A stretch of 29,041 bases of DNA from a virus (IMGVR_UViG_3300045988_100074:1-29041), one strand, 5' to 3'; positions 2,548-26,257 are shown, counted from the stretch's first letter. Program-made: numbers and translations. Notes: generated by a model not told the origin, from the sequence alone.

Positions 2548-2597
2548 TGTAACTTTTTTATATTATCTTAGTACCAAATATGAGTAAAAAAGTTACA
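2548..2597 (-). repeat. 50-bp inverted-repeat element, copy A (loop in opposite orientation to copies B-D)
   Basis: Arms are TGTAACTTTTTTA (2548-2560) and TAAAAAAGTTACA (2585-2597). The reverse complement of the loop, CTCATATTTGGTACTAAGATAATA, matches the loops of copies B, C and D. Confidence 0.8.
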
Positions 2598-2598
2598 G

Positions 2599-2916
2599 TT
2601 AATGTTTTCTTTTTCATTCTTCAATCTGTCTATTTTCTTCATTAGCTTTATCTATAACATAGCATATAATGTTAAGAAACTCTTTAATCTGCATATCATA
2701 TATCTGATGTCAATTAAATCTGGTAACTTCACTTACCTTATCTATTCAGATAATTCAGCTTCATTTTTGAGTAAAAGGATTAATCGTCTCGTCTGTATTA
2801 AGCTCTTCAGAAGTTTCCTTCTTTCCAGTTTGTCCCTGGTTTTCCTTAGTCTCTTCTTCATCTCCCTTTCCGAAGAGTGTAGGGTACTCAGCGTTGATAC
2901 TTGCAATAAGTTTACA
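2599..2916 (-). CDS. Candidate -1 frameshift extension of the 3383 gene (fusion about 261 aa)
   Basis: The -1 frame is open from 3015 to a TAA at 2599-2601 if TGA=Trp (TGA at 2614, 2710, 2746, 2755, 2761). It is entered at a T9 run (plus-strand A9 at 2916-2924). It has no ATG of its own before 2694. The sequence is protein-like: ...GKGDEEETKENQGQTGKKETSEELNTDETINPFTQKWSWIIWIDKVSEVTRFNWHQIYDMQIKEF... Confidence 0.4.
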
Positions 2917-3383
2917 AAAAAAAACATTATGTCTGAAAATATATCTATTGTTAGATGGGTATTTAAGAATTCTGCCTCATCAATAGGGTCATAATCTTCT
3001 CCATACTTCTTTCCATTAGGTAGTAAGAAACAAGCTGCCAGATTAGGCATAAAATCATCATACTGCTTATAAAAATTCTGAAAGTCAATATATTGACTGG
3101 CCGTCATCTTATTAACATTAAAAAAGACTTTATATTCTTTATTACCAATATTATAAGTAGTTTCTGGGGTTTTTGGCTTATATGGAGTCTCTATAAATTT
3201 AAGATTATTTATAAACTCTTGTAGCTTGTTTACTTCCATATTAGTTATATCTTCTATAGGTATATCACTAAGTACAGATACCATAGCTAAATTCATATCT
3301 AATTCATTTTCCCAGTCTTTTCGTATTATCTCAAACAGTCTTTTATAATGAGATAAATCCATTTCATTCCAATTCTTTATCAT
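2742..3383 (-). CDS. Hypothetical protein (zero-frame product, 213 aa) downstream of terL
   Basis: Track ORF. ATG 3381-3383 overlaps the terL stop by 1 nt. TAG stop at 2742. The last ~60 aa are Arg/Lys-rich and look like an out-of-frame reading of an acidic stretch. Confidence 0.6.
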   Translation of the reverse strand: MIKNWNEMDLSHYKRLFEIIRKDWENELDMNLAMVSVLSDIPIEDITNMEVNKLQEFINNLKFIETPYKPKTPETTYNIGNKEYKVFFNVNKMTASQYIDFQNFYKQYDDFMPNLAACFLLPNGKKYGEDYDPIDEAEFLNTHLTIDIFSDIMFFFVNLLQVSTLSTLHSSEREMKKRLRKTRDKLERRKLLKSLIQTRRLILLLKNEAELSE

Positions 3384-4630
3384 TATTTAATTGCAATATT
3401 ATAAGTTCCTTTATTTGTATTTAAAGCATCATAAGCTAACATTAAAGATATACAAGTATCATCATTAAATCCAGATGGAGCATTATATGATACATTTCCA
3501 GTTTTTGGATTATATGAAGCTTCATATAGTCTTAATTCATTTAATAGTTTATCATCCTTTAAAATACCAATCTTTTCGTTTTCTAATGCAGCTTGTAGCT
3601 TATTTACAATAGCTGCTTTAGACTTATTAGTAGTTAAAAACTTAACTATCCGTAATTTAGGATTCCTTTTTACAAGAATATCATAAAACACTGAACCTAT
3701 TGAGTTTTGTTCAACTTGAACTATCTTTATAAATCCCTGATACTCAGTGAATATATTTGTCAGTAAATCAACTTGTTCTGTTGGAGTTTTGTCGTTAAAA
3801 TACTTTATAAAGACCATCTGCCCATTTTCATTTAAAGCTGTAATACAAGTATAGTCTTTACCAGAACCAGTAGCCCAGTCAACTCCAATATAGAGATTAT
3901 GATATTCAGGTTTTTTATCAATTATACAGTTAGCTATATTATTAAATAGGCAACCATCATCATCTGCAAACTCTCCAAGATATTCAGTTCTAAATTTATT
4001 TTTGGAGGTTGTAAGGCGATACATTTCAAGTTTATCCTCACTTAACAGCATAGAAGTATCTTCTAATGCTCAATCAAAGGATTGATAATATTTACTAAAA
4101 TTACCATCAAAGCCCTTTTTAAAGCATTCATAAAAGAATCCTTCTCTAAACCTTGGAGTACTAATTATAAGTATTGGAGCATTTCATACATCAGCTATAG
4201 GTGTTAAAATTTCGTATACTTCATCTGATATATAAGCTGCTTCGTCAATTACTAATATTCCACTAACTGTAAATCCTCGTAATGAATCTTTTTGCTCAGC
4301 AGATTTAAATAGTATTTCACTCCCATTAGTAAATTCAATCTCAAGCAAAGATTCATTCTTTTTCTTAATAATATCTGTGCCATCTAATGCCTTCACTAAC
4401 TCTTTAAATATCTTTCTGGAGTTAGTAAGAGTTGGTTCAACAATACAGCTAATACTTCCAGGATAGTTAATTGAAAATCGTAATAGTTCATTTTCTGCCA
4501 TAAAGGATTTACCACATTGTCTCTTTGCTTTTACAGTAAATATTTTTCCAGACCTATAAGAGTGCTCTAAAGCAGTATGTACCTTTAATTGATAGATAAA
4601 TGGGCTATATCCTTTATATATTTTTGTCAT
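3383..4630 (-). CDS. terL: Terminase large subunit
   Basis: Track ORFs 4184..4666 and 3383..4051 are in the same frame. The gap 4052-4183 was checked and is open, with TGA at 4070 and 4184. Walker A KRQCGKS, Walker B ILVIDEAAY, IISTP motif, then an RNaseH-like nuclease half (IGVDWATGSGKDYTCI, NDDTCIS). Start taken at ATG 4628-4630; ATG 4664-4666 is also possible. Confidence 0.85.
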
Positions 4631-5057
4631 TGTTAATTGGATCTCCAAATTTAAACTGGACTTCATTATTCTGAATAGCTACAATAGTCTCAGGTTGATT
4701 TAATCCAAACATACTATTTATAGTCTTAATAATCTCATTTGCAGCTCTAATATCTCCCTTACTAATAGCAGTATCCAGTAATGATTCCAATCTTGATAAT
4801 TGTATATGTCTAAGATTTTTTATAAGGTTATCATTCTTTTCAGCAATTATCTTATAAGCTTCTCCAATATATCTTGCAGCCGTTGATTGGCTTACATTAT
4901 ATTTACTTTGAAGTTCTTCACTTACTTTATTCCTTGACCATCCTTTGTTAAATAACCTTGCAGCATAAAGATATTTAGTCTTTACTTCGTCTATTTGTTC
5001 CTTTTCTACCTCTGCCTTTTTCGGTCTCCCTACTTTCTTCTTTATTTGCTCCTTCAT
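4614..5057 (-). CDS. terS: Terminase small subunit (putative)
   Basis: Lies immediately upstream of terL and overlaps it by 17 nt. Basic N-terminus GRPKK plus an HTH-like stretch WSRNKVSEELQSKYNVSQSTAARYI. First ATG at 5055-5057; the track start at 5063 is TTG. Confidence 0.6.
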   Translation of the reverse strand: MKEQIKKKVGRPKKAEVEKEQIDEVKTKYLYAARLFNKGWSRNKVSEELQSKYNVSQSTAARYIGEAYKIIAEKNDNLIKNLRHIQLSRLESLLDTAISKGDIRAANEIIKTINSMFGLNQPETIVAIQNNEVQFKFGDPINNDKNI

Positions 5058-5307: not shown

Positions 5308-5329
5308 TTTTATTTAAAATATATTATTT

Positions 5330-5656
5330 TTAATCCAAGTATTTATAAACTATATCTATTAGTTTGGTAATCATATCTTTAATTAGAATCATACAATCCT
5401 TTATAACTGGAGTCATAAATGCGATTAAAGCAATATATGCAATCATTAAGAAGCTTAATTGTCCAGTTACTAAGATATATAGTAAACTTGCCCACCAAGT
5501 ACAGCATAGAGAACATCCAAATAAAGGTATAGACCAATCAGTGTATTTAACTCCAGGATATAGTTTACTTCATACCCATCTATTTGCCTTGTCCATAGCT
5601 CCAGATAAATCAATACAGAAGACAAGAATAATAGCTATAAAAAGTATGCTTAACAT
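5330..5656 (-). CDS. Small integral membrane protein, 108 aa
   Basis: ATG 5654-5656, TAA 5330-5332, all triplets checked, one in-frame TGA (5570). Has hydrophobic segments and a CSLCCTWW motif. It replaces the antisense track ORF 5364..5678. Confidence 0.6.
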
Positions 5657-5895
5657 AACCTCTCTCTTATTTGTTTAATAAATCTCTGAATAGTCGTATG
5701 ACTAATTCCCAGAATCTTCCCAACTTCTCTATAACTTCGATATTCAGCATATAAGATAATTATGGTCTTATCTGCTCTATTTAATGCCTCTCATTTCGGA
5801 TAAATTGCAAGTAATCTATCATCCATCTCTGTAAAGGTATCTATTTCAAAGTTATACTCAATTAATAAATCATCAATATTAATCTTCTGCTTCAT
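5650..5895 (-). CDS. Sigma-70 region 4-like HTH protein, 81 aa (C-terminal half of an ECF-like sigma)
   Basis: ATG 5893-5895, TAA 5650-5652, one in-frame TGA (5791). The stretch ADKTIIILYAEYRSYREVGKILGISHTTIQRFIKQIRERL matches the region 4.2 pattern. Confidence 0.55.
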
Positions 5896-6187
5896 TTAAC
5901 CAATCCTCTAAATTATCCGTTTGTTGTTCTAATGGCTCTTTAAATATTTCATAGTACTTTTTATATTGGTAATAGTATCTACTATTCTTAGAAAACCAAT
6001 TATTCTTAAATACTCTTGTAATCCAATACTTCAGCTCATTCTTACTATCTAATGACTGAAGCTTGGAATTAGATGTTTCCAGAAGTGCGATACATACCAT
6101 TTGTGTGCAATCATCATCTGCACCAAATTTTTCTTTTAACTCCATAATAAATGGATAGTATTTTTCTATTATTTCATTGTTATTCAT
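5879..6187 (-). CDS. Sigma-70 region 2-like protein, 102 aa (N-terminal half of an ECF-like sigma)
   Basis: Track ORF. DDDCTQMVCIALLE...ELKYWITRVFKNNWFSKNSRY fits the ECF region 2 pattern (D-QE..., WL--IA-N---D--R). Confidence 0.5.
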   Translation of the reverse strand: MNNNEIIEKYYPFIMELKEKFGADDDCTQMVCIALLETSNSKLQSLDSKNELKYWITRVFKNNWFSKNSRYYYQYKKYYEIFKEPLEQQTDNLEDWLNEAED

Positions 6188-6671
6188 ATTCCCAAATAAA
6201 TCCTCCAGCTGTTTTTCGCTGACCTTTAAGAACCTTTACAATGTTTCTGGATTGTATATTAAGCTCCCGTTCAGCATCTATTGCGGAATCTCATCTCTTA
6301 ATAAAACTTCTATCTAAGGATAGCTGTTTAATTGCTTTCTTATGAGAAATTCCCATTTTAATGTTATGACTGCCATAATTATTGTTATACTCATAAGTAC
6401 AGTACTCTAAATTATCTAAGTTATTATTTAGCTTATTTTCGTCCTTATGATTAATACATAAGTCATTTTTACCTATGAAAACTTCTGCCATTAGTCTATG
6501 TAATAGGTATTTCTTTGGCCCAAACGGATTATATAAAGTAACATAATAGTATCCACTATTTTGAAGTTGAGGTTTGATATTTTTCGGAACTGAGGTTCTA
6601 GTACTCAAGACCGAACCGTCAGTTCCTATTAAATAGTTTTCATATCCAGGTATTGCCTTATATGTCGTCAT
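6180..6671 (-). CDS. HNH homing endonuclease (NUMOD4-like N-terminus, HNH core, C-terminal HTH)
   Basis: IPGYENYLIGTDGSV, LHRLMAEVFIG, INHKDENKLNNNLDNLEY. In-frame TGA at 6291, then DSAIDAERELNIQSRNIVKVLKGQRKTAGGFIWEYE and TAA at 6180-6182. Confidence 0.8.
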
Positions 6672-7565: not shown

Positions 7566-7585
7566 ATAGTACAAATATACAACAA
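7566..7585. repeat. Left arm of a 20-bp perfect inverted repeat
   Basis: ATAGTACAAATATACAACAA is the exact reverse complement of 7759-7778. It embeds the -7 box of the leftward promoter. Confidence 0.9.
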
Positions 7586-7603
7586 AAAATTCATATTTCC
7601 AAA
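7572..7603 (-). promoter_or_regulatory. Bacteroidota-type promoter, leftward
   Basis: The minus strand reads TTTG, then a 20-nt spacer, then TATATTTG (consensus -33 TTTG / -7 TAnnTTTG). Confidence 0.6.
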
Positions 7604-7660: not shown

Positions 7661-7691
7661 TTTGTAGATTAAAAAATTATTCTTATATTTG
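7661..7691 (+). promoter_or_regulatory. Bacteroidota-type promoter, rightward (distal)
   Basis: TTTG (7661-7664), 19-nt spacer, TATATTTG (7684-7691). Confidence 0.5.
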
Positions 7692-7740: not shown

Positions 7741-7772
7741 TTTGGAGATTGAGAAAAATTGTTGTATATTTG
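7741..7772 (+). promoter_or_regulatory. Bacteroidota-type promoter, rightward (proximal)
   Basis: TTTG (7741-7744), 20-nt spacer, TATATTTG (7765-7772). Confidence 0.6.
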
Positions 7773-7778: not shown

Positions 7779-7846
7779 CAAACTAAAACTACTTCCATAT
7801 TGAAAATTGAGCTGGGATTAATTTCCAGTTTAATTTTAACCTTTAC

Positions 7847-7896
7847 TGTAACTTTTTTACTAATATTTTGTAGTAAGATAAATAAAAAAAGTTACA
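7847..7896 (+). repeat. 50-bp inverted-repeat element, copy B
   Basis: Left arm TGTAACTTTTTTA, loop CTAATATTTTGTAGTAAGATAAA, right arm TAAAAAAAGTTACA. Lies in the leader, 35 nt upstream of the helicase ATG. Confidence 0.8.
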
Positions 7897-7930: not shown

Positions 7931-9649
7931 ATGAAAACTTATTTAAATAATTTAATCAATGAATTACCTACTAACTGCTTATTTGACAAAGGTAAAGTAG
8001 GATGTGGTGGAACTTCAATGGCTTTAGAGTGTGATAAGCCTTATGTTATATGTGTTCCATTTGTAAGCTTAGTTGAGAATAAACTTGCTCAATATCCTAA
8101 TGAAAGACGTAAAGAGCCTATTTTTGGAGTTTATCAAGGTATTACTAAGACAGACATTGAAGCTTATGTATCTTCAGTTAAATGCCCTAAAATCATTGTT
8201 ACTTATAATTCTCTTTATAAAGTAATAGAAGCAGTAAATCCTAAAGATTATAGCTTATTAATTGATGAATATCATATACTATTTAATCAATATAGTCTTA
8301 GAAGAGATGCAATTAAAGATGTATTAAAGACATATAGTCTATTTAAAGAATATACATTTATGACTGCAACTCCATTAGAAGATGAATTTGTTTTAGATGA
8401 ATTGTCTAAACTGCCATTAGTAAAACAAGAATGGGATGATGTTATTGAGACTAAAGTTCAGACTGTTAAATGCAAGAATGTAGAAGCTTCCACAATTAAG
8501 CTTATAAATGGATTTTTAAGTGGGAATGTTGAAGGTAATGCTTATATATTTGTTAACTCTGTTGACTTTATAAAGAATCTTATTTTAAAGGCTAAACTTA
8601 CAGCAGATAACACAAGAGTAGTATATTCTAAGAATAATAGAACTAAACTGCCAATTCAGAATTCTTCAGTAAATGATGAACCTAAGAAGATTAATTTGTT
8701 GACTTCTACTGTATTTGAAGGTTCTGATATTTATGATGAAAATGGAAGAATTATTGTAGTTAGTGATTCCTCTAAAGCTCAGACTCTTTTAGATATATCT
8801 ACTTCAATTCAACAGATTGCTGGTAGAATTAGAAATAGTAAATATTTAAATTGGATTACTCATCTTTATTCAGCCACAAGATATGCAGAGATAGATTATG
8901 ATACATTTAAAAATAATACATTAAAGAATATTGAAGAAACAAAGATTGCAGTTGAATCATATAATCAGCTTCCAGAAGTAGCTCGTAAGAAGATTACAGA
9001 CTTTACAAGTGACACATATATTCAAATTAATGAGGATTATACCTTTGAATTTGACCCAAATATGGCTAAAGTAGATATATTCAATTTTAAGGTTGCAAGA
9101 GGTTTATACTCTGTAAGAGTTAATCTTACTAATGAATATCTAAAGAATGGCTTTATAAAGGTTGCTGAATGTGAAGATAAATCTATTAAGATAGACCTTG
9201 AAGCTCCTAGTAAGTCATTTCAGGAGCTTATTAAAGATGTAAGAGCTGAATGGGAAACTAAATTTAAAGTTGGAACTCCTATATTAAATGAAGCTCTAAT
9301 TAAATATCCTTGGTTAAATGATGCAATTAATAAACTGGGATTTGAAAGAATGGCAACTTTGGGTTATTGCATTAAAGATATTAAAGAGGAGCTTGTTAAA
9401 ATATCAGATAAAAATATGCCAAATAAGGTTGCCAAATTACTTACAAGAGATATTCAGAATGGTATGTTCTACAGTTTAGCTTTATTAAAGAATAAGATTG
9501 CTGATGTATATAAGACTTTAGGTATAAAGAAAACTGCAAAGGCAACAGATATTGAACACTATTTTGAAGTTAGAAAATCAACTAAAACTGAAAAGGATGT
9601 TAGAAGCAAAGGATACATTATTATTAGACCAAGATTCATATTTAAATAG
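7931..9649 (+). CDS. SF2 (DExH-type) helicase, 572 aa
   Basis: Track ORF. Walker A GKVGCGGTS, motif II LLIDEYH, motif III MTATP, motif VI QIAGRIRN. No in-frame TGA; all Trp are TGG. TAG stop. Confidence 0.7.
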   Translation: MKTYLNNLINELPTNCLFDKGKVGCGGTSMALECDKPYVICVPFVSLVENKLAQYPNERRKEPIFGVYQGITKTDIEAYVSSVKCPKIIVTYNSLYKVIEAVNPKDYSLLIDEYHILFNQYSLRRDAIKDVLKTYSLFKEYTFMTATPLEDEFVLDELSKLPLVKQEWDDVIETKVQTVKCKNVEASTIKLINGFLSGNVEGNAYIFVNSVDFIKNLILKAKLTADNTRVVYSKNNRTKLPIQNSSVNDEPKKINLLTSTVFEGSDIYDENGRIIVVSDSSKAQTLLDISTSIQQIAGRIRNSKYLNWITHLYSATRYAEIDYDTFKNNTLKNIEETKIAVESYNQLPEVARKKITDFTSDTYIQINEDYTFEFDPNMAKVDIFNFKVARGLYSVRVNLTNEYLKNGFIKVAECEDKSIKIDLEAPSKSFQELIKDVRAEWETKFKVGTPILNEALIKYPWLNDAINKLGFERMATLGYCIKDIKEELVKISDKNMPNKVAKLLTRDIQNGMFYSLALLKNKIADVYKTLGIKKTAKATDIEHYFEVRKSTKTEKDVRSKGYIIIRPRFIFK

Positions 9650-9809
9650 AATTGCGGATATTAAAGAAACTCTTAAAAAGTCAGAAGATACTATTAAGGA
9701 GTTTGATAAGTGAATGAATGAATTTAAAGAGAATTCTAAGAAATTAGGAGATATTATAGATAGAGTATTAGCACAAAGAGATTTTACATTTATTTCAAAA
9801 TTTGATTAA
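9597..9809 (+). CDS. Small hypothetical protein, 70 aa
   Basis: ATG 9597-9599 overlaps the helicase 3' end. One in-frame TGA (9711). TAA at 9807-9809. A coiled-coil-like acidic/basic sequence. Confidence 0.4.
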
Positions 9810-10088: not shown

Positions 10089-10092
10089 ATGA

Positions 10093-10120
10093 AAATAGGA
10101 GGGTATATACCCTCCTATTT
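10093..10120. terminator. Bidirectional terminator hairpin between convergent operons
   Basis: AAATAGGAGGGTATATACCCTCCTATTT is a GC-cored palindrome flanked by A and T runs. It sits between the plus-strand stop (10088) and the minus-strand stop (10125). Confidence 0.65.
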
Positions 10121-10124
10121 CTGT

Positions 10125-10715
10125 TTAAGCGTATTTTCAAATATATCCTTTTACTTTATAGCCTCCTCTAATTGCTTTAGAAATAGAATTTTTATGAACT
10201 CCAACATCTAAAGAAGCACTAACAGCACAATCATATTCTTTAATAAGAACATCGTCTTTATATGCACCTACTTTTTTAGCTCTAGGATTATTTCCAAAAG
10301 AATTATTTAAATAACTCAAATCTTTACCTTTATGACTATTACTCATCTTTTTTCGAGTTTCTTCTGATGGATGTCTTCCAATACATTTGGCTCTAATCTT
10401 ATCTTTTCTTTCCTGAGTGAATACAATACCTAAGGTGCCGTCACCTCCATCTGTAGCATTATATCCATATTTTGGATTTCTAGTATTATACTTATGAATA
10501 AGAATTTTTTCTAAAGTCTTGGCACAAGGTTCTGGCAAATTATCTTTAATTATAATATGTTCAAAATTATCCCATCCATATTTTGTTATAGCGTTTCAAA
10601 ACGGCTGTTTTTTATAACCCAGACCATTTGCTCATCGTATTTCTGGCTTCTTACAAGTAATACCAATATATTTCTTACCGTTAATCTTGTTTAAATGAAC
10701 ATATATACTATACAT
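10125..10715 (-). CDS. GIY-YIG homing endonuclease (HE1)
   Basis: ATG 10713-10715. MYSIYVHLNKINGKKYIGIT, with R-[TGA]-ANGLGY and PF-[TGA]-NAITKYGWDNF, then NUMOD3-like EETRKKMSNSHKG. The track stop at 10137 is itself TGA, and the gene continues as ...GYI-W-KYA to TAA 10125-10127. In-frame TGA at 10137, 10596 and 10632. Confidence 0.85.
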
Positions 10716-12400: not shown

Positions 12401-13090
12401 TTACTTACTCTTTTTATTGTTACTTGAAGGGAAATCATAAGCTCTTTGAAGAGGCCCCTCTCCAGGTTTAATGCTCCATCCTTTACCTCTTGTTCCACCA
12501 AGCCAAATATTGCAAGATGAGCTAGAGTAAAGATTGGGAAACATATCCTTTAATGGCTTATATGTATAAAGCTCAGGGAATTCATTATAATATGTAATTA
12601 TAAAGTCCTGTAAACGAGTCTTAAAGAAATCCGCCTTATCTCTATAATACTTCTTAATTTGATTTACTTGACTTGCTTCAGCAGCAATATCTTTCTCATC
12701 ATCAGTTCTCATAACTCCAAAATTACCAAGCTTATAAGATATAGGAATTACTATCTCGCTAAGTACTTGATAAAGTAAATAAGGCTGAACATAATAGTCT
12801 AATAGCTCTTTATATCTGTAGTTATCAGAATCATCAATAGAATCACTTGGAAGTGGCTCAGGAGGTTCTATTGGATGAACTGGAGTATGAGGATCAATCC
12901 AATTAATACATTTCTTTTGTAATGCTTCCAATAGCTTAGTACCAATAGTTGACTGAAGTTCTACATCTTGGGCACTTGTGATGGCTGCTTGTAAATATTT
13001 ACCCGATATATTGTTATCTAATGTAGAATTTGACTTTATATAGTCTTCTGAAATAAGCAGTACATTTCTATAGTTAAGTTGTTCCATCAT
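12401..13090 (-). CDS. Hypothetical virion-module protein, 229 aa
   Basis: Track ORF. Its start overlaps the HE2 3' end by 17 nt. No TGA. Confidence 0.55.
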   Translation of the reverse strand: MMEQLNYRNVLLISEDYIKSNSTLDNNISGKYLQAAITSAQDVELQSTIGTKLLEALQKKCINWIDPHTPVHPIEPPEPLPSDSIDDSDNYRYKELLDYYVQPYLLYQVLSEIVIPISYKLGNFGVMRTDDEKDIAAEASQVNQIKKYYRDKADFFKTRLQDFIITYYNEFPELYTYKPLKDMFPNLYSSSSCNIWLGGTRGKGWSIKPGEGPLQRAYDFPSSNNKKSK

Positions 13091-15142: not shown

Positions 15143-15218
15143 ATTTTACAACAATTTACATTAGTTTTACACATCTTTTTCTTAAAATATAAACCAATTT
15201 ACTAATGTATTAAAATAA

Positions 15219-18300: not shown

Positions 18301-20733
18301 TTATTCTACAATTAAATATTGTGTATTAGGATCTTTAGTTGATAAACCATCATACTCTGCTTGAGTTAGAACAGTAATAGTATTTATTTGAGTCTGAGTT
18401 CCAGTTCCAGCTTCAATATAGTTTCCAGCAGGCTGAATACCTAAATCTGATAAACTCTTATTGCCAGATAACTCAACAGAATTAATCTGAGGTTTATTTG
18501 TTAACTGAGTATAATCGGTAGTCCCTCCACTACCAGATATTTCAAGATTACCTTCTCCTAAAATACTTTCACCATTAATAGTCTTTATATTAGTACCAGA
18601 AACTAGTTGCTCTTGATAACTATGATAACTAGTATCTGCTGATACTCCAGTTGGAGTAATAGTAGTTTGAACAAGAGTATGATTAGCTGTAGTACTTTCA
18701 AAATGGAAAGTAGCTTGAATATTTTCTCCTGAAACAAAACATACTTCTGGAGCTGCTATATCACCATAACCTAGAATATTTACATAATAAAGCTCAAATG
18801 GTGTTTTATTAGCTATAGCATTCTTAACAGCAGCGAAATCTCCAGAAAGATGAGTAGTGGAATTTATAAATAGAAATGGAATATTAGAACCACTTTCAAT
18901 TTCTATATTACCTTCTCCAAGTAAAGACTGACTATTGATTGTTTTGATATTAGTTCCACTTACAAGTAAGTCTTGCTTAGTAGCCATCTCTTTATCAAGA
19001 GCATCTATCTTATTTCCATCTTCTTCTTGCTTTGTTTTAATAATTGATATATCTGAAGTATTAGTTGCTACTTGAGTAGATAAAGATTCTACTACAGAAG
19101 AATCTGCTTTACCTGCAAGTTCTATTTTTGTTGCATAATCTCCTACAGGCTGTTTAGTAGCAAGCTGCTCATCAACATAAGTCTTATCTGCTTTACCTGC
19201 TAAATCTCCAGAAACCTCTGTTTCAGTTACAAAGTTAGAATCATTAGTAAGCTCACTAACTTTAGTTGGAATATCACTCTTTAAAGCATAATCTCCTTTA
19301 TCTTGTTTTGCATCAATCTTACTTTGTAAAGAAGATCTTAGAGTCTCAATTTCCTCATTAACTGAATCGTTAGTTGCATAATCACCAACTGGTTGGTATC
19401 CAGATAAATCTACAGATAACTGAGTCTTATCTCCATTAAAAGCTAATGGAGCTTGAGGAGCAAATACTCCTTGTTTTTCCTCAAGTTTGGCATCTACTTC
19501 TTCTTTAGTATATCCTTTATTAGTAAGATCAACCTCAGTAACTTTAACAGTCATATTACCATTATTTACTAAGATTGCATTAATAACTACTAATACACCA
19601 TTATCTTGGAAATAATAGCCATATAAATCAATAGTTTCGGGATGCTCAATAGTTGCAACAGGAATAACTATAATATCACCTTTATATGTAATCTGGCAGA
19701 ATAAATAGAAGTCCAGATTAGTTCTAATAAAGTCATAGATATGTTTCTGTCTTACAGGATCATTCTCATCTAAATTAAGTAAGAAATGATTCTCAAAAGC
19801 AGAGATTACATTATCTATAATAGATATATTCTTTCCTGCTGTAAGCGTTTCCTGTTTTGAAGCTATCTCTTTATTAATAGCTGTATTTAAAGCATCAATT
19901 TCAGCTTTGGTATATTTATCTGCTAATTGTGCATATAGAGGACCATTAACAATACCAGCTTGGTTAGTCTCTGTATTATATATTGGAAGTTCAACTGCTT
20001 CTCCAGTTTGATTACCAAATACAGGAGCTAAAGTAACTTTAGATGGGACTGATTGAATATTAATGGCAGGTACGATTGAAGCTGCTCCAGATAATTCAGT
20101 TCCATTTAAAGATGGTTTGTTACGAATAGTATTATAATCTGCAGAAATAGTATTCTCTTCAATTACTATACCATCACCTTGGTTTAATTTATTCTGTTTA
20201 GAATTTAATGCACTTTCAGTAGCTTCTTTTGTAAGATAATTATCTTCAACTCATTTTTCAGTAGCATATCCATCTAAGCTACTAATAAACCCACTATCAT
20301 TAGTTAATTGTGAAGTTTTTGTTGGTATCTCAGATTTATCGGCTTTATTGGCAACTGCATCTGAAATTTCAGTTGTAACCTCTTCTTTAGTTGGATAATC
20401 AGCTAATCGTTCAGTTATCTGATTATCAATATTTTCAGCACTTGGAATAGTACTCTTTATTTGCTCTAACTCAGAATTAATAGTAACAATATCTTCAGAT
20501 GACGCTAATCCCAACTCTTCTGAAGTCATATTACCATTTAACTCAATACTATTGATCTCAGGTTTATCCTGAAGATCAAAATAGCTATTAGTAGCTAACT
20601 GAGAACCATCCATAACCTTAACTTCATCATCCTTGTCAATAACAATAACTTTAGTCACATTTGACTTATCTATTGTTTCGACTTCAAGGACATTAAGATA
20701 AGGAAGAATTGTCTTTTCAGTTTCGTTTGCCAT
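18301..20733 (-). CDS. Long tail fibre protein, 810 aa
   Basis: Track ORFs 20251..20733 and 18301..19554 share a frame. I checked all triplets 19555-20250 and found them open, with a single TGA at 20251. Fibre motifs TSQLTNDSGF, VSELTNDSNF, INSIELNGN, INSVELSGN, and two copies of LVSGTNIKTIN--S-LGEGN-EI. Confidence 0.8.
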
Positions 20734-20734
20734 A

Positions 20735-20956
20735 TTATTTATTTTTATAAGATTCCTCTTGTTCTTTTAAATATCTTTCATTTGTTTCTGCATCAATAAC
20801 CCTATAAATAGATATATCAAAGGTTAAAGGGCAATATAAAATAGTTGATGCACTATACTCTTTAATATCATCACCTTCTTTATATGAGGTAATAAAATAT
20901 CCTTCATCAGAGTATAACTTTATAAATATGCTAGTTTCAATATGTAAATGTTCCAT
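20735..20956 (-). CDS. Small conserved partner protein, 73 aa (paralog of 16940..17176)
   Basis: Track ORF. Its ATG overlaps the upstream stop by 1 nt. Confidence 0.6.
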   Translation of the reverse strand: MEHLHIETSIFIKLYSDEGYFITSYKEGDDIKEYSASTILYCPLTFDISIYRVIDAETNERYLKEQEESYKNK

Positions 20957-22143
20957 TATGCTAATATCCAGTTTTTATTAGTAGCTATTGCTTTCTGTTC
21001 ATCTGATAATTTTGCCAGATTGGTAGCTCCTAATGTTAAAGTTTTGCTATTCTCCCCTGTTAAATCAACTAATGCATTAATAACAGACATTAAAGAATCA
21101 GTAGTAAGATTGGTACTTGCTGATAGATATAATCCTGCTCTAAGCTCACCGTTTACTGTAAGATTAGTAATTCCACCACATTTTGAAAATATAGGATTTA
21201 TTGAACTTTCTTGAGATGTGTATGATGGAATGTTTAATGTTACATCTGTTAATCTAATGCAATCTCCAAACATATTAGTAGTAGTTACTAATTTAGGAGC
21301 GTCTAAATTAAGTGTTTTCAGGCTATTATATCCAGATAAGGTACCTCTGCTAAACATATTAGACCCATCTGTTAATTCAGGCATTGGAATAGTGAATGAT
21401 GTTAAATCAGCACATTCTGTAAACATATATCTGCCATCTTCTAATTTAGGCAATTGCATAGTGAACTCCTTAATTTTTGATCTTTGACATTTATATCTTC
21501 CATCAACTAAATTTTCTCAACCTACAACATTTGCAGGAACAGATGTTCCCGTAAACCTATATAAATTAACTACAGCTTGTGTAATATCATAGGTATTCAT
21601 TGGATTCGTAACATTAACAGTTACATCAATAAACTCCATATAATCATATCCATCTGCAGGATGAATCATTGTAGTTCCATTCTCTGTAATAGTAACTTCT
21701 CTATGCTCCTCAACTGGAATCTCTACATCTACTTCAATACTTGATAAACCTTGATAGCCAGCATCAGGTTTAACTTCAGTCATTGATAGGTTTTTATCTA
21801 TTGTTATATGTTTCTCTTGTAAAGTAGGAGTTGGTACTGGAACATTTATTTGTGCAGAAACCTTCTCCATAACATCATAATCTGGATCAGGTAAAATATC
21901 TATTAATCCATTAGATGTAATTGTAATCTCTTTAGTAGCTTGTACTGTAGGAACAACAACATCAACAGATACATTTACTTTCGACATACCATCATAACCC
22001 TCATCTGGAGTTACAACGAACTCAGCATTCTGAGTATATTCTACAGACTTCTCCTGTAATTTACATTCTTGAGCAGCTAAAGCTTCAATATCTCTTGAAG
22101 TTGTATTCTTTGCTACTTCTGGTGTTGTATATTTAATAACCAT
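20956..22143 (-). CDS. LRR-type putative receptor-binding / tail protein 1, 395 aa, with N-terminal tandem repeats
   Basis: Track ORFs 21517..22143 and 20956..21459 share a frame and 21460-21516 is open. One TGA at 21517. The LRR-like unit continues across the junction (LVDGRYKCQ...LEDGRYMFTECADL...LTDGSNMF...TTNMFGDCIRL). Confidence 0.75.
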
Positions 22144-22190
22144 TTTCTATAAAATATAAATAGTTAATTATCTGTCCATAAACAAAATAA

Positions 22191-22216
22191 GGGGCAAGTA
22201 AATTAATACTCGCCCC
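22191..22216 (-). terminator. Rho-independent terminator-like hairpin after the capsid/tube block
   Basis: GGGGCAAGTA / AATTAA / TACTCGCCCC (one mismatch). The minus-strand reading is followed by TTATTTTGTTTAT. Confidence 0.6.
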
Positions 22217-22226: not shown

Positions 22227-22751
22227 TTAAGCACCTACAACACTTTGAATAGCTTCAGCACTCAACTCATAAGGATATGATTCAGAGTCAGTAGCTAAAG
22301 TCAGCGTATAAGCGTTCTGATCACCTTTTGCAGTACCAGTAACACCCGTACCAGCGGAAGCGCTTACATAGTCATCTTTTCCTAAGAACCAGTATTTGCC
22401 ATTAGAATCTTCTACAACAACTACAAGTTGTCCAATAGAAAGAGCAGCAATCTCGATTCTTTTCTTAGTCTCCATCTTTGTAAATACAAGAGCAAGCTCA
22501 TTACTTACATAGTTGGTTCCTGCAGTTTCGTCAACGTTCAATGTTGAGGTTAGAGAACCAGTACCTTTGCGGAATTGGTAATTATACCATTTAGCAGAAG
22601 CTTCAAGAGTAATAGCTGAGATTTGATTAGTCTCATCATCTACAGTTACACTCTTAACATTATCGTACTGAGTAATCCATACCTGTTTGATACCACCAAG
22701 CGAAGATTCGCAATCCAGGGTAATACCAGCGATAGTTATTAAACAAGCCAT
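22227..22751 (-). CDS. Putative major tail (tube) protein, 174 aa
   Basis: Track ORF. The pattern ...GQLVVVVEDSNGKYWFLGKDDYVSASAGTGVTGTAKGDQNAYTLTLATDSESYPYEL resembles siphovirus major tail proteins (recalled). GC-richer than its surroundings, no TGA. A head-decoration role cannot be excluded. Confidence 0.45.
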   Translation of the reverse strand: MACLITIAGITLDCESSLGGIKQVWITQYDNVKSVTVDDETNQISAITLEASAKWYNYQFRKGTGSLTSTLNVDETAGTNYVSNELALVFTKMETKKRIEIAALSIGQLVVVVEDSNGKYWFLGKDDYVSASAGTGVTGTAKGDQNAYTLTLATDSESYPYELSAEAIQSVVGA

Positions 22752-22789: not shown

Positions 22790-23692
22790 TTAGGCTTTGG
22801 CACCAAGAACTACCTCATCAGGGAATGCAACCTGTACGCCAGCGTTAAATTCAATAGCTAATCTAAATTCGCGGAAATCTTGTGAATACCACAATTCAAA
22901 CTTCTCTTCATCGTTCATCATATCGCAACCATAGAAGAAGTTCTTATCTAACTGACCAGCAACAATCTTATCAGTTCCATTAAGACCATTAACAGCGATT
23001 ACTTTAACCTGCGAACCAGGAAGCATAATCTCACCGTTAAGATTCTCACCACTATAGTGGTAGTAGTTCTTAGCAACTAACTCCTGGATAAATTTACGGA
23101 AAGTATCACTACCAACTAAGATAGAAGCACCATCCAGAACCTTCTCAGGAATAGCGTTATAAACTGCCATAATGTCATCATAAGCAGATGCACCAGTAAT
23201 TACTACATCAACTGTACCTTCAGCAGCACCAAGGATCTTTAACAGACCATCAAAGTACTTCAGGTTATTTGTTTCAGAAGCAGTATCACCCTGCCAAATA
23301 GCAGTCTCAATAGCAGCCTTAACGTTCTCAACTACTGCATTTACGAAATCCTCTTCAAAAGGAAGCGTCTTCTGACCAGCAGCTACTCGTACTTGATACT
23401 GAGTCCAGTATTTAAGCATCTCTTTATCACAATATGCCATATTGATCTTAATATTACCAGTAGCCAGAATTCTCTGAGAAAGAGTCTGAGTTCCAGCTTC
23501 ATCCCAACCACAAGCTAGGCCATCGCCAAACTGAATAGCAGTTGATAACAGGTTAAGAGCAGCACTAGTTTTGATGTCAGTTTGAAGATTGAACAACGAA
23601 GCACTCTTAGCCTTTAATACAGCCTCTTTTATCAATGGAAGCCTGCGCTGTTCTACGTAACTAGTTAAACTCGTCATTACGGGGTTTGCCAT
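22790..23692 (-). CDS. Major capsid protein (HK97-fold type, putative), 300 aa
   Basis: Track ORF. Follows the protease and scaffold genes. Its size, composition and GC-richer codon usage are typical of a highly expressed gene. All Trp are TGG. Confidence 0.7.
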   Translation of the reverse strand: MANPVMTSLTSYVEQRRLPLIKEAVLKAKSASLFNLQTDIKTSAALNLLSTAIQFGDGLACGWDEAGTQTLSQRILATGNIKINMAYCDKEMLKYWTQYQVRVAAGQKTLPFEEDFVNAVVENVKAAIETAIWQGDTASETNNLKYFDGLLKILGAAEGTVDVVITGASAYDDIMAVYNAIPEKVLDGASILVGSDTFRKFIQELVAKNYYHYSGENLNGEIMLPGSQVKVIAVNGLNGTDKIVAGQLDKNFFYGCDMMNDEEKFELWYSQDFREFRLAIEFNAGVQVAFPDEVVLGAKA

Positions 23693-23706: not shown

Positions 23707-24345
23707 TTAATTGTTATACTTAAATATTTTACCTTTATGCTGTTTATATTTTCCGTTTAATACTCTAAGAATAGAGCTTTTACAGTATCCATCTAAAACA
23801 GCATTTTTAATTGAAGGATAAGTTTTAATTATATTTCCTTCTAAATCTAGCATAATGATTGATTTAGTACCTTTATTTATATGAGATTCAGACATCCTTT
23901 TTCTTGTCTCTGAAGTAAACTCTCTATTTATAGCTATATTTTTAAGTCTTTCTGTAGTTTCAGCATTATATACTCCCGTTTTGTGTTTATTTCAGGGATT
24001 ACGACCTTTGCAAGATTCTGATATTTTAATAGCTATTTCTGGAGTCATTCCTCCATAACCTCCTGGTTTAAGATTTAAACATCTCTTATCGGTGTTATAA
24101 CAATCGCCTATAATATCAGCTTCTCTTAAAGCATTATCTTTTGAAGAATCATTAAATTCAATTATAACTTTTCTGTAAGTAACATCTTTAATCTTGCCAT
24201 ATTTACTATAGTAATTAGTAAGAATAGTGCCACTTCCTGCATAGCTATTATTAAATGGATCTTCATCAGTACTATGCTTGCCTATATAGTAAGTGTTTTC
24301 CCATCCAGGCATTAAAGGCTGAATTTCATAAATATAATGGTACAT
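23707..24345 (-). CDS. GIY-YIG-type homing endonuclease (HE3)
   Basis: Track ORFs 23992..24345 and 23707..23895 share a frame and 23896-23991 was checked open. One TGA at 23992 in GRNP-[TGA]-NKH, which matches the PWNKG motif of HE2. HYIYEI...YYIGKH, LREADIIG, NLKPGGYGG, NUMOD3-like SETRKRMSESH, C-terminal HTH-like tail. Confidence 0.75.
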
Positions 24346-24956
24346 TACTCAAACATTCCTTGGATATTTTTAAGCTTTTTATCAATAACAGGATTGCCAG
24401 TCATTATTGAAGCTTTACCTTCTATCTGTTCCTCAGCTGAAAATGCAGCACTCATTTTGCTCATCTTTTCAACCGTCTTTTCTGTAGCTTCAGATTTACC
24501 CTCTAATTCAGCTACTTTCTTAACAAGCTTATCAACAATGTCATAAAGCTCATTAATTTCGCGATGAATTGCATCAATTGCATCAGTTACAGTTTCTTTG
24601 TCACCATCAGTAGCTACTTCAGGATCAACTGGCTCTTCAGCAGTTTCTACCTTGCGTTTTCCACAAGCAGCATCAACTTCTGCTTTAGCTGCTTCTTCTG
24701 GATCAACCTCAGCTTTAGGATCAGTTACAGACTCTACTTTACCGTCTTTAACAACAATTGTCTTTCCATCCTCAGTTACATACTCACCATCCTCAGCAGG
24801 TTTGTATTCTCCGTTCTCATCCTGAACATATACATCCATACCAGCGCGTAAGTCTTCATCTGAATCCCAAGTAAGTACACCACTTGATGTCTTTAGATCC
24901 GTAAAATTAGACAGCATTCTCGCTAACTCCAATTTAATTTTAGTGAATTTACTCAT
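24345..24956 (-). CDS. Scaffolding protein (putative), 203 aa
   Basis: Track ORF. Very acidic with a coiled-coil-like C-terminus. Positioned between the protease and the MCP. No TGA. Confidence 0.55.
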   Translation of the reverse strand: MSKFTKIKLELARMLSNFTDLKTSSGVLTWDSDEDLRAGMDVYVQDENGEYKPAEDGEYVTEDGKTIVVKDGKVESVTDPKAEVDPEEAAKAEVDAACGKRKVETAEEPVDPEVATDGDKETVTDAIDAIHREINELYDIVDKLVKKVAELEGKSEATEKTVEKMSKMSAAFSAEEQIEGKASIMTGNPVIDKKLKNIQGMFE

Positions 24957-25551
24957 ACTTAAATTTAAAATTTTTATGATAGTTTTGTTTACCTTTGCAA
25001 CATCTTATAATAGCACTATGATCAAATTTATCCTCTCGTTCAGCATCCATCGAAGAATCCCAAGTTTTTATATAAACATCATTCAAATCTGTTTGAATTA
25101 TACGTTTACTTACTTTTTGCCTGGATTCTTTACTCTGTACAGAACCTAAACGTACTAATCTAAGCTTATCTTTTGTTTCATCGCTTATAATCCTTCCTCT
25201 CTGTTTTGCAGACATTTTATTTCTAGATTCGATTGTATGAATCTGTCCTTTATTGCCTCCTCCACCTAATGTAAGATTATAACCATTTGAATAAGTATCA
25301 AATAATTTAATATATCTCATTTCTGCTTCATCCAGTTTTGTTCTTAGTAATTCAGCTGTTGAACAGCAAAATACTTGCAGAATATCCCATTTAAAGGAAT
25401 CAAAACCATAATACTGAATTGCATTATGAAATTTATCATTCTTAGTTCTGTACTTATGTTCTTTTTGTCTGCGACTAAAATCATTAGTCTGCCCAACATA
25501 TTTTGCACCATTAGTTTGATTGGTTGCTAAGTATATACATCCACTATACAT
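24949..25551 (-). CDS. GIY-YIG homing endonuclease (HE4)
   Basis: Track ORF. GCIYLATNQTNGAKYVGQT, RRQKEH, NGYNLTLGGGG, three NUMOD3-like repeats (ESRNKMS, ETKDKLR, ESRQKVS). No TGA. Overlaps the scaffold start by 8 nt. Confidence 0.85.
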   Translation of the reverse strand: MYSGCIYLATNQTNGAKYVGQTNDFSRRQKEHKYRTKNDKFHNAIQYYGFDSFKWDILQVFCCSTAELLRTKLDEAEMRYIKLFDTYSNGYNLTLGGGGNKGQIHTIESRNKMSAKQRGRIISDETKDKLRLVRLGSVQSKESRQKVSKRIIQTDLNDVYIKTWDSSMDAEREDKFDHSAIIRCCKGKQNYHKNFKFKYE

Positions 25552-25561
25552 TAACCTCTTT

Positions 25562-26155
25562 TTAATGTTTAACTCTTTTTATCTTCTTAATCATATTAAG
25601 GATCTCTTTTATTTCGTCATATTCATCAGACTTTCTCTCTAAAGTAAATAAACCTTCAATTGAGAACCCTTTAAACTTACCAGCTTTAATTGCATCTCAA
25701 ATAACTTGATTATCTACTTTATAAGTGGCAAATAAAGAACCATCAGGAACATCCTGGAATTCAACTGGAGATATTCCTCTATTAATATCCTTTACATAGA
25801 TTTCTTGTAGAGTAATTCCATTTAAATCAGAATCTTCTAAATGTTCAATATTTACATCTGTAGTTCTCTTATCATACAGCATCTTCTCTGCCATTTTACG
25901 AAGAGTTTCCTTATCATACTGTATGTAGTATTCTCCGAGTTTCTCATCTCGTCTGAAAATTGGAGTATCACTTAACATTAAGCAAGATGTTACTAAATGC
26001 TTATCTTCATCCATCGAGAACTTCTGAGAATTACTAAAAGCAACCCAGTTAACTTGTGTAGCTGGTTTGCTTGTTAAAGCAACATATTCTATTCCATCAC
26101 AATCATCAGTAATCACTGCCTGAAATAATGGAAGATCATTATAAGTAATTTCCAT
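25562..26155 (-). CDS. Prohead protease-like protein (XkdF / S78_2-like), 197 aa
   Basis: Track ORF 25697..26155 extended through TGA 25697 (...NQVI-W-DAIKAGKFKGFSIEGLF...) to TAA 25562-25564. The YVALTSKPA and GFSIEG motifs resemble XkdF-type proteins (recalled). Confidence 0.5.
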
Positions 26156-26207
26156 TTTTATTAATATATAGCACTTTATAAATTTGTAATATTTTTAGAA
26201 TATCTAA

Positions 26208-26257
26208 TGTAACCTTTTTACTCATATTTTGTAGTTAATAAGAATAAAAAAGTTACA
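26208..26257 (+). repeat. 50-bp inverted-repeat element, copy C
   Basis: Left arm TGTAACCTTTTTA, loop CTCATATTTTGTAGTTAATAAGAA, right arm TAAAAAAGTTACA. Lies between the tape-measure-like gene stop and the protease start. Confidence 0.8.

Follow-up and report, generated by a model that had tools for sequence, protein, structure and literature searches.

The DNA examined here, a window of 29,041 nt, comes from a phage of the human gut in which TGA encodes an amino acid. It contains a 50-bp element in four copies, which lie exactly where a preliminary description had placed them and fill four of its ~6-7 real intergenic gaps. The copies and the features around them are the following:

2522-2544, no strand assigned: GC hairpin beside copy A (TAGGGAG-GTTTA-CTCCCTA), with T-rich tails on both strands
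2548-2597, minus strand: copy A, read forward (arm, T-run, ACTCA...) on the minus strand as TGTAACTTTTTTACTCATATTTGGTACTAAGATAATATAAAAAAGTTACA; covariance model 69.3 bits
2599-2694, minus strand: conserved ORF of 31 aa (MQIKEFLN..EEWKRKH, TGA read as W), its stop 1 nt from copy A
5650-5895, minus strand: HTH protein of 81 aa (HTH_50), in the early leftward operon
7572-7603, minus strand: mirror early promoter, canonical Bacteroidota type
7661-7691, plus strand: second early promoter, canonical Bacteroidota type
7741-7772, plus strand: early promoter, canonical Bacteroidota type (TTTG-N20-TATATTTG), 74 nt upstream of copy B
7812-7836, plus strand: hairpin, CTGGGATTAATTTCCAG then TTTAATTTT, between the early promoter and copy B
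7847-7896, plus strand: copy B, TGTAACTTTTTTACTAATATTTTGTAGTAAGATAAATAAAAAAAGTTACA; covariance model 63.4 bits
7931-9649, plus strand: helicase-like gene (572 aa, SF2 or DEAD-like), the sole large plus-strand gene
15218-15245, minus strand: terminator-like hairpin beside copy D, 12 pairs then TATTTTAATA
15245-15294, plus strand: copy D, TGTCAAGTTTTTTACTCAAATTTAGTATTAAGAAAAAATAAAAACTGACA, with arms TGTCAAG../..CTGACA; covariance model 70.7 bits
26208-26257, plus strand: copy C, TGTAACCTTTTTACTCATATTTTGTAGTTAATAAGAATAAAAAAGTTACA; covariance model 65 bits

When the window was scanned with a covariance model built from members of the element family, the four copies scored 63-71 bits, the next best site reached 12.5 bits and no fifth copy was found. 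The loop core TTTTTACTCATATTTTGTAGT has four matches at ≤3 mismatches in the window, against 0.00 expected from shuffles. Each element consists of self-complementary arms of 12-14 bp bracketing the core, and is very AT-rich (GC content 16-26%). In DNA as AT-rich as this, arms of 12 nt with a loop of 12-45 nt are not rare within 240 nt: the best arm of shuffled sequences was ~9-10 nt on average and 13 nt at most, with p ~0.12 for copy B alone. Since the inverted repeat alone is not rare, its significance rests on recurrence, conservation in relatives and covariation.

Sequence comparison confirmed that A is inverted relative to B, C and D, and A, C and D do lie between minus-strand genes once TGA is read as a sense codon. 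All copies except B are found 1-10 nt after a stop codon. Copy D is 1 nt from the stop of the minus-strand gene 15296-16282, and in the sense of that gene the terminator-like hairpin lies directly downstream of D and abuts it. Copy C follows the stop of a minus-strand gene of 890 aa (26268-28940) by 10 nt and precedes the start of a protease-like gene (25562-26155) by 52 nt; no GC hairpin was found at C. At A, the GC hairpin begins 3 nt beyond the element in its forward reading and keeps the same place in relatives, whichever the element orientation. Copy B is upstream of the helicase-like gene, as had been described: it sits between the early promoter with its hairpin and the start codon, 18 nt past the hairpin and T-run and 34 nt ahead of the ATG. 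Hairpin, T-run and element follow one another in this order at A, B and D and in distant relatives, and no copy other than B and the window's A is oriented with the downstream gene. A terminator scan marked the adjoining GC hairpins and not the elements, which are unlike intrinsic terminators in having an A/U-rich stem, a loop of 24 nt and no T-run after it.

In dozens of related metagenomic phage genomes of ~30-32 kb the element occupies the same intergenic junctions. Relatives with 31-55% helicase identity carry a forward arm-core-arm element immediately ahead of the helicase gene, usually directly behind a GC hairpin and T-run and usually as the only copy. A few carry another forward copy close by or an inverted copy past the helicase stop, and some of these relatives are prophages in Bacteroidota genomes. 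The position and orientation of B are conserved in all relatives examined, and the helicase-like gene is the gene linked to the element in all of them. We regard the site just upstream of this gene as the oldest one. The window's lineage has extra copies at 3-4 other junctions, directly after stop codons. The orientation of B, C and D is constant in every genome, and the junction holding A has the '-' orientation in ~11 genomes and the '+' orientation in ~10 or more, so that the reported occurrence of both orientations holds. At this junction the two orientations always bring different arms and loops, which indicates allele replacement and not a flip. On the same ground the element does not qualify as an inverton (invertible promoter), and no recombinase was found among the annotated proteins; to our knowledge, a 24-bp invertible segment is too short for known invertases. 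Over 67 nt that take in the flanks, A is an 88% match to B in inverted orientation, which points to conversion from B.

The suggestion that the arms matter as a paired or symmetric unit was borne out. Arm sequence drifts among relatives (TGTAAC/GTTACA, TGTCAAG/CTTGACA, TGTCTA/TAGACA, TGAGGG/CCCTCA, GTCCAT/ATGGAC) while compensatory changes preserve complementarity, which is still intact in relatives with 50-55% helicase identity, where the arms are entirely different. In 34 distinct family members, arm positions 4-7 covary on both sides; the covariation score was 0.172 versus 0.047 in shuffles (0 of 500 reached 0.172) and ~0 with the partners slid, in alignments that are fitted to the model and hold related sequences, so that independence is overstated. 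In the window's element family 92.6% of cells are paired and four pairs change on both sides (24 cells), and a second family scored 0.406 versus 0.127, compensatory change thus occurring in two independent families. Pairs kept by compensatory changes, as expected of a structured element, are therefore present, and the covariation test is blind to the difference between RNA, DNA or a symmetric protein site.

Such pairing could reflect an RNA hairpin within long-operon transcripts, acting as an intercistronic processing site, 3'-end stabiliser or attenuator, with a 12-14-bp A/U-rich stem directly after stop codons and sometimes paired with a canonical terminator; we consider this possible but on balance doubtful. 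It would account for the arm covariation, for the post-stop location of the copies other than B, for the terminator hairpins adjoining A and D and for the free orientation at the A junction, since perfect inverted repeats give an identical stem in either orientation. Predicted RNA stems of A, B and C also beat shuffles (-9.6 to -17.7 kcal/mol, z -2.9 to -7.4), that of C being most stable on the late-mRNA strand, where a C·A mismatch becomes a G·U pair. The arms of D are imperfect, and its predicted fold is no better than shuffles (z -0.8 and -1.6). However, the directional core is conserved at every position, yet it is transcribed forward at B and as the reverse complement at C and D, so that a factor binding RNA would not meet one and the same motif at these sites. 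Moreover, the oldest and most widely conserved copy stands in a 5' control region after a terminator and not at a 3' end, and a stem without a following U-tract is not an intrinsic terminator alone. The arm mismatches inspected are T·T, A·A and G·A plus G·T on either strand, a mixture that gives no sign of RNA-specific wobble, and no Rfam 15 family matched the window at E ≤1, while a relative's control region matched tRNA only.

The loop holds a conserved asymmetric core (T-run-ACTCA, ~6 nt, GTAnTA(A/T)GA, A-run), of which TTTTTACTCA-N6-GT is invariant in nearly all 34 distinct copies, at every position, while other loop bases drift; the core persists in relatives whose arms were replaced. Judged from this pattern, it is directional and selected. 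The proposal that function is independent of loop orientation was too strong, given a nearly invariant directional core and copies (B, C and D) that never flip. The loops read CATATTT(T/G)GTA(G/C)T and the phage's early -7 boxes TATATTT-GTA(C/G)T. Compared with Bacteroidota sigma-A promoters (-33 TTTG / -7 TAnnTTTG), the element has a -7-like box followed by GTA(G/C)T, like the phage early promoters, but the box starts with C instead of T or is one base longer, and a window pattern scan found no TTTG at -33, 18-21 nt upstream of the -7 box, in any element. The box is CATATTTG in A, ATATTTTG (one base longer) in B and C and CAAATTTA in D; its TTTG is missing in many relatives, and both the lack of a -33 box and the degenerate form of the -7-like box in many copies (ACTCACTCAAAG, ACTCAACTAATG) count against a promoter. 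Only three full matches to TTTG-N18-21-TAnnTTTG occur in the window, at 7603 (minus strand), 7661 and 7741 (both plus strand), all in the early divergent region, and with canonical promoters (TTTG-N19-20-TAnnTTTG) confined to that region the other genes need another promoter type. For the helicase gene, a promoter separate from the element has little space: in the window and in L086, L096, L222 and L223 the right arm ends 6-34 nt before the ATG, so that any promoter situated beyond the terminator would have to overlap the element, and RNA started from it could not carry both arms.

We infer that the 81-aa HTH protein is a candidate trans-acting factor. It is conserved across the phage family and matches HTH_50 above the curated cut-off (E 1.9e-8), several HTH families giving matches, and its score against Sigma70_r4_2 is 25.2 bits for a cut-off of 25.7. 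Its 102-aa neighbour has no Pfam match, only close homologues, and a Foldseek search of the PDB with its AlphaFold model (pLDDT 77) returned no sigma-like match (best E 3.7); a phage sigma factor with sigma-2 and sigma-4 domains was not found. The link to an ECF sigma factor that had been raised for the arms proved unsupported. With an ECF promoter defined by a -35 box with AAC, a 16-17-nt spacer and a CGT/GTC-type -10 box, TGTAAC-N16-nGTA fits A, B and C; the arm variants TGTCAAG, TGTCTA, TGAGGG and GTCCAT lack the AAC of ECF -35 boxes, and the HTH protein matches sigma-70 region 4 only at about the cut-off.

As relatives retain the element ahead of their helicase gene, we believe that it is most likely a phage-specific transcription control cassette, and tentatively favour one acting at the DNA level, as a promoter or operator that is non-canonical, depends on a factor and is gated by a symmetric stem or operator. 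From a core without -33 TTTG we infer a non-canonical promoter dependent on a phage factor; the comparisons directly show the anatomy, conservation and covariation of the element and the statistics of its positions and orientations, whereas its promoter activity, protein binding and antisense role are all deduced from sequence. The original job of the cassette would be control of the helicase (replication) operon. Its core resembles the phage's early -7 box with a base added, and its arms would together form a symmetric operator, each arm a half-site for a small regulator of the phage, or with lower probability would extrude as a stem, gating the promoter by either route. In the lineage, the cassette may have spread by copying to three or four further junctions, immediately past stop codons, where the extra copies, pointing mostly against late genes, would fire antisense or boundary transcripts or merely add a binding site, and at A a B-like copy of opposite orientation may have overwritten the earlier one. 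Transcripts running antisense to late genes have been reported in some Pseudomonas phages. If the core is a promoter, then C, D, the post-helicase copy of relatives and most versions of A would be antisense into gene 3' ends, an unusual aim that counts against the promoter reading, as do the window's copy A, which points directly into a terminator hairpin, the mixture of arm types within genomes, and half-sites centred ~37-44 bp apart and bracketing the promoter, an uncommon operator geometry. The window hairpin upstream of B is weak, so that transcription reading through from the early promoter might suffice for helicase expression in the absence of B; the corresponding hairpins of relatives are stronger (GGCAGGTGAAAATCCTGCC then ACTTTTT).

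The element can be compared with PeSLs, the promoter-early stem-loop cassettes of T4-type phages (PMC2839356, PMC4122927). Both are short composite motifs of terminator/promoter-like type repeated between genes and drifting in sequence between phages, both combine a stem-loop and T-run with a following promoter-like core, and in both copy exchange or shuffling is implicated, here in the apparent overwriting of one copy by another. However, in a PeSL a canonical early promoter of the host type follows the stem-loop, which runs in the direction of the genes, while the promoter-like core of the element lies inside the inverted repeat without the host -33 box, most extra copies run against the genes, and no enrichment of recombination breakpoints was seen.

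It is unlikely that the elements are pure protein-binding sites without a promoter, that is, split palindromic operators at which a phage regulator would block or organise transcription at unit boundaries, in the manner of mycobacteriophage L5 stoperators or phi29 p4 sites. Their scatter over transcription-unit junctions, with one in the early control region, would suit this role, as would left arms that are near-identical within a genome, arm sequences that are lineage-specific like operator/repressor pairs, the conserved HTH protein and the integrated prophages among the relatives, which would need silencing. On the other hand, the TGTAAC and TGTCAAG arm types co-occur within one genome, which fits poorly with a dimeric regulator of defined sequence specificity unless it reads TGTnA and the T-run alone; the asymmetric core between the half-sites is left unexplained; and no integrase or repressor gene was found in the window or annotated in the examined stretch of the phage's 32.3-kb contig. 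L5 stoperators and phi29 p4 sites are likewise multiple sites across intergenic gaps in early and late regions. The former are asymmetric 13-mers for the mycobacteriophage L5 repressor and not split palindromes, and the latter are inverted T-tract/A-tract half-sites with a 15-bp spacer, placed upstream of a promoter, whereas the arms of the element surround the promoter-like core.

A selfish or recombinogenic palindromic repeat (REP, MITE or PeSL type), spread by gene conversion and harmless in gaps, with only the copy upstream of the helicase gene functional, is very unlikely. It would fit the inverted A-B identity and a copy number that varies among relatives, some of which have a copy after the helicase stop, while L102 and L103 have a degenerate one at the A junction. 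In L223 and L097-type genomes the helicase gene lies between two inverted copies, and in the window's lineage, but not in the 52-55% relatives, the helicase block has been turned round with respect to the other genes. Like REP/BIME palindromes and MITEs, the element is a short palindromic intergenic repeat in both orientations, often after a stop. However, it has 4-5 copies only, at fixed orthologous positions across dozens of genomes, and a large conserved asymmetric loop whose core is under purifying selection in all copies while adjacent bases drift. No target-site duplication was seen in the flanks inspected, no transposase or RAYT was found among the annotated proteins, and breakpoints of high-identity segments were not clearly enriched at elements (8 of 169 versus 2.8% expected). 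The element thus does not qualify as a mobile palindrome, and the MITE-like reading is also opposed by conservation of the helicase site, mostly as a single copy, far beyond the lineage. Overall, the preliminary description was right in its observation and partly supported in its interpretation, as regards arm pairing, the change of orientation and the place of B; orientation independence was put too strongly, MITE-like mobility is weakly supported and the ECF link is unsupported.

It is hardly credible that the elements serve as origins of replication or as unwinding elements, in the form of AT-rich palindromes with phased A-tracts that lie beside the helicase gene and at which transcription or a hairpin primes replication, although the universal helicase link, the low GC content and the co-orientation of most copies on one strand would agree with it, because promoter function would explain that link equally well, no iterons or DnaA boxes were noted at the elements by eye, and four to five copies lie directly after stop codons in a 32-kb genome. 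Such origins would resemble those of phage T4, which are of the promoter-plus-unwinding-element type.

Returning to the factor-dependent promoter, a specific form of it, in our view distinctly unlikely, is a structure-gated one, in which the core would work between pairing arms (extruded DNA or a symmetric-protein clamp) and, in the window's lineage, the co-oriented copies at 3' ends of late gene blocks would form an antisense-promoter network. The early hairpin promoters of phage N4 are similar in that an inverted repeat with conserved pairing accompanies a promoter, in the element a putative one. The hairpins of N4, with stems of 5-7 bp and loops of 3 nt, are recognised by a virion RNA polymerase, whereas the loop of the element is 24 nt and no phage RNA polymerase was found among the annotated proteins. 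If this form is true, the antisense-promoter network would hold back the structural genes until the replication phase is over.

The four 50-bp copies of the inverted-repeat element, here called A, B, D and C, were found exactly at the positions given in the preliminary description, and they fill four of the only about 6-7 real intergenic gaps. Each consists of an asymmetric, directional core (the loop) between two complementary arms of 12-14 nt, and is read as forward when the arm is followed by a T-run and then by ACTCA. The copies and the adjacent hairpin of A are as follows.

2548-2597, minus strand: A, beginning 1 nt past the stop of a conserved 31-aa ORF (2599-2694)
2522-2540: GC hairpin, 7 nt beyond the other end of A
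7847-7896, plus strand: B, 34 nt 5' of the helicase ATG and 18 nt past a hairpin with a T-run
15245-15294, plus strand: D, 1 nt past the stop of gene 15296-16282 and abutting a 12-pair minus-strand terminator hairpin
26208-26257, plus strand: C, beginning 10 nt past the stop of an 890-aa gene

The loop core TTTTTACTCATATTTTGTAGT gave 4 matches at up to 3 mismatches in the window, against 0.00 expected, and a covariance model trained on 11 family members scored the four sites at 63-71 bits, each on its own forward strand, with the remainder of the window at 12.5 bits or less. Taken alone, B yields a p of about 0.12 (the best inverted-repeat arm in shuffled 240-nt stretches is about 9-10 nt), and in DNA this AT-rich, inverted repeats that pair 12-nt arms across a loop of 12-45 nt are not rare. 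The family is thus real on the strength of recurrence, conservation and covariation together, no single palindrome being sufficient. It represents the sole strongly repeated non-coding signal of the genome, and no match to an Rfam family was obtained. On the plus strand, the order of hairpin followed by element is common to A, B and D; the co-occurrence of terminators and elements was not significant gap by gap, since the two share one small set of gaps. Two strong GC hairpin terminators have no adjoining element, namely 10092-10121, at the convergent junction past the helicase operon, and 22191-22216, which follows gene 22227-22751, itself downstream of the capsid-like gene.

The window has a GC content of about 30%, and the same genome is present as a human-gut metagenome contig of 32,269 bp. 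Under the standard code the genes look fragmented, while reading TGA as sense produces a compact minus-strand array that includes the following ORFs.

3383-4666, minus strand: large terminase, with TGA as sense
13672-14763, minus strand: portal, with TGA as sense
22790-23692, minus strand: capsid-like gene, with TGA as sense
26268-28940, minus strand: the 890-aa gene, with TGA as sense

TGA is a sense codon across the window, probably encoding Trp, as it aligned to W at the single conserved position available for testing; that same alignment does not favour Gly (code 25). Recoding restores full-length terminase, tail and 890-aa genes (e.g., 3383-4666, 18301-20733, 26268-28940), and it further affects several genes of the early operon as well as a small ORF on the plus strand (e.g., 9597-9809). 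No tRNA gene was found in the window, and Shine-Dalgarno sequences are absent from the genes. The only large plus-strand gene is the SF2 helicase-like gene (7931-9649, 572 aa). Five apparent homing-endonuclease genes, a high load for a 32-kb phage, were also noted: 6180-6671 (HNH/NUMOD) and 10125-10715 (GIY-YIG/NUMOD) by Pfam, and 13074-13706, 23707-24345 and 24949-25551, GIY-YIG-like on sequence alone. In addition, three paralogous tail-fibre-like genes (15296-16282, 17178-18299, 20956-22143) share about 30 C-terminal aa (..EQKSL.ASKNW..). The first of these, adjacent to D, is hypervariable and receptor-binding-like, given that its identity in close relatives is only about 41%, compared to 97% for neighbouring genes.

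No relatives were returned by megablast when 25 kb of the window were compared with 50,697 phage records, and the helicase protein search gave distant matches only, at up to 31% identity. Relatives, many of about 30 kb, were gathered from IMG/VR by one pattern scan and two protein-anchored scans. The genomes carrying helicase relatives belong mostly to Bacteroidota or other FCB group members and include a Bacteroides congonensis prophage adjoining an integrase; the phage family with the element includes prophages in Bacteroides, Segatella and Alistipes genomes. Helicase homologues were borne by at least 673 contigs. One contig of 148 kb (L102/L191, IMGVR_UViG_3300045988_175865, 148,631 bp) carries a close relative of the window phage at its end; this may reflect an integrated or concatenated state, or mis-assembly.

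Covariance-model matches were limited to genomes with a helicase of 71% identity or more and fell at the same junctions, and B, C and D were in plus orientation in every matching genome. A fifth copy is present in some genomes, in minus orientation, 2 nt past the helicase stop. The A junction is variable: about 11 genomes, including the window, carry a minus copy with TGTAAC arms, and about 10 or more carry a plus copy with TGTCAAG/CTGACA, TGTCTA/TAGACA or TGTCAAG/CTTGACA arms. Whichever its orientation, the element occupies the identical position beside the same hairpin, and its flank towards the ORF is nearly identical up to a few bases from the element edge. Since A and B of the window match at 88% over 67 nt in inverted orientation, flanks included, a copy resembling B but oppositely oriented has overwritten the one at this junction; the two orientations are different alleles and no simple flip.

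Comparison of 34 distinct copies showed TGT, the T-run, ACTCA, a GT six bases later and ATAAAAA to be near-invariant, while arm positions 4-7 and the remaining loop vary. Arm changes are compensatory, with 92.6% of cells paired and both partners altered in four pairs (24 cells). Covariation scored 0.172, compared to 0.047 for shuffles (0 of 500 reached the observed value) and about 0 with partners slid; as the alignment was fitted to the model and is made up of related copies, the number of independent events is overstated.

More distant relatives retain an element at the helicase gene. In those with 52-55% helicase identity (L221, L222 and L223), all genes run in the same direction, and the element is kept before the helicase gene with the core T5-7ACT(C/G)A ... 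GTATATAGA ... A-run and with new arms, as follows.

L222: TGAGGGT7/A7CCCTCA
L221: GTCCAT/ATGGAC
L223: TGATAC/G(T)TTCA, plus an inverted copy directly past the helicase stop

Relatives at 31-47% identity have a second element family in this position, following a GC hairpin and T-run, with short arms and a loop of about 38 nt starting AAATTTTG. Its arms covary (90% paired, score 0.406 vs 0.127), and every copy found points forward and precedes plus-strand early genes. Three other lineages (L110, L199, L200) have individually significant arms, with 14-18 matched bases and p = 0 of 60 shuffles. A generic inverted-repeat scan of distant relatives was too noisy in AT-rich DNA, where lone arms of up to 12 nt are not significant; the claims for distant relatives therefore rest on these three lineages, on the covariation of the second family and on matches of the first covariance model. 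As the element is kept there by distant relatives, its ancestral, general site is the helicase operon's 5' control region, and the multi-copy state is specific to the lineage of the window. The helicase block is inverted in that lineage and co-directional in L221, L222 and L223. Inverted element copies flank the helicase gene in L223 and in L097-type genomes, and such copies could have mediated the inversion. In another distant relative (L148, 9628-9699), a tRNA gene lies between an early promoter and the terminator-element module, and an apparent in-frame TAG in its helicase ORF suggests a different stop-codon reassignment.

Regarding other promoter signals, the full Bacteroidota pattern (TTTG-N18-21-TAnnTTTG) occurs exactly three times in the window, always within the 405-bp divergent early region.

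7572-7603, minus strand: Bacteroidota-type promoter, pattern match to TTTG-N19-20-TATATTTG
7661-7691, plus strand: the same
7741-7772, plus strand: the same

Two of the three form a mirror-image pair (inverted repeat 7555-7585/7759-7789). An early promoter lies 74 nt upstream of B, consistent with the earlier placement of B in the predicted 5' leader of the helicase mRNA. With canonical promoters confined to the early region, the remaining genes must use another signal. The motif TATATTTTA, a candidate for such a signal, occurs five times on the minus strand, four of them in gaps shortly upstream of genes.

2484-2492, minus strand: TATATTTTA
5315-5323, minus strand: TATATTTTA
15183-15191, minus strand: TATATTTTA
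22150-22158, minus strand: TATATTTTA

Three of these sites are 6-7 nt from the ATG and the fourth is 40 nt away; the motif is preceded by a terminator hairpin at three sites, and could be a late promoter without a -33 box or a translation-start context. A sigma-70-type scan returned fewer promoter-like sites than shuffles and is uninformative for this host type. Likeness to a T7-type promoter (ACTCACT...AG) was dismissed, as no single-subunit RNA polymerase was found.

The link to an ECF-like sigma factor, previously offered as speculation, was rejected by Pfam, homologue search, structure prediction and Foldseek. The 81-aa protein (5650-5895, minus strand) matches HTH families and reaches sigma-70 region 4 only at about the cut-off. 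For the 102-aa protein (5879-6187, minus strand), Pfam gave no domain, all homologues are close and confined to this phage group, and the AlphaFold model (pLDDT 77) showed no sigma-like match in the PDB. Moreover, the AAC of the ECF -35 element is missing in most arm variants. The two genes overlap by 17 nt and are retained as a pair in relatives; the 102-aa product is predicted to be all-helical, with a fold of unrecognised type.

Concerning mechanism, the core is selected at all sites, yet local transcription reads it forward at B and reverse-complemented at C and D. This speaks against a sequence-specific function in RNA and in favour of one in DNA; the core thus probably acts on DNA. Several lineages have no more than 6-34 nt between the end of the right arm and the helicase ATG, with a terminator immediately upstream, an arrangement in which the promoter would have to overlap the element and transcripts would lack the left arm. 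Such an overlap is probable. The loop resembles the phage's own -7 box plus one extra base, without a -33 box. We therefore tentatively prefer, at somewhat less than even chances, a reading in which the core would serve as a non-canonical, factor-dependent promoter and the arms would form a symmetric operator or, with lower probability, an extruded stem. However, most extra copies are antisense, A in the window is aimed directly at a terminator, arm types are mixed inside single genomes, and the hairpin upstream of B in the window is weak.

An RNA hairpin, rather unlikely overall, best accounts for the siting directly past stop codons, for the free orientation at A and for the predicted stems of A, B and C (z -2.9 to -7.4), but the D stem is no better than shuffles, and both the conserved directional core and the ancestral 5' location are left unexplained. 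Pure operator or 'stoperator'-like sites are improbable. A conversion-prone selfish repeat is more doubtful still: of 169 recombination segment ends, 8 lay no more than 75 bp from an element, where 2.8% was expected, a weak signal from ends that are not independent, and breakpoint enrichment is not clear. The related suggestion of a MITE-like repeat did not hold, the positions being fixed and neither target-site duplications nor a transposase being present in the material examined. Replication origins are very improbable.

The nearest described system is PeSL, the composite terminator/promoter cassette of T4-type phages; like the element, it is a short regulatory repeat that drifts between phages and is exchanged among sites (PMC2839356, PMC4122927). 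In contrast, the promoter-like core of the element lies inside an inverted repeat and is no host consensus promoter, and most copies oppose genes. The element is placed among phage intergenic regulatory repeats. L5 stoperators, phi29 p4 sites, N4 hairpin promoters and REP elements are partial analogies.

To our knowledge, almost nothing is known about gene timing in non-crAss gut-Bacteroidota phages or about regulation in TGA-recoding phages. Were it simply a hairpin or a conversion-prone repeat, the element would be nothing unusual for a phage genome; should the antisense copies prove active, they would be a compact example of late-gene antisense control. Because the element is tied to the replication gene across a wide phage family, it offers a concrete, testable handle on a non-canonical promoter/operator class.
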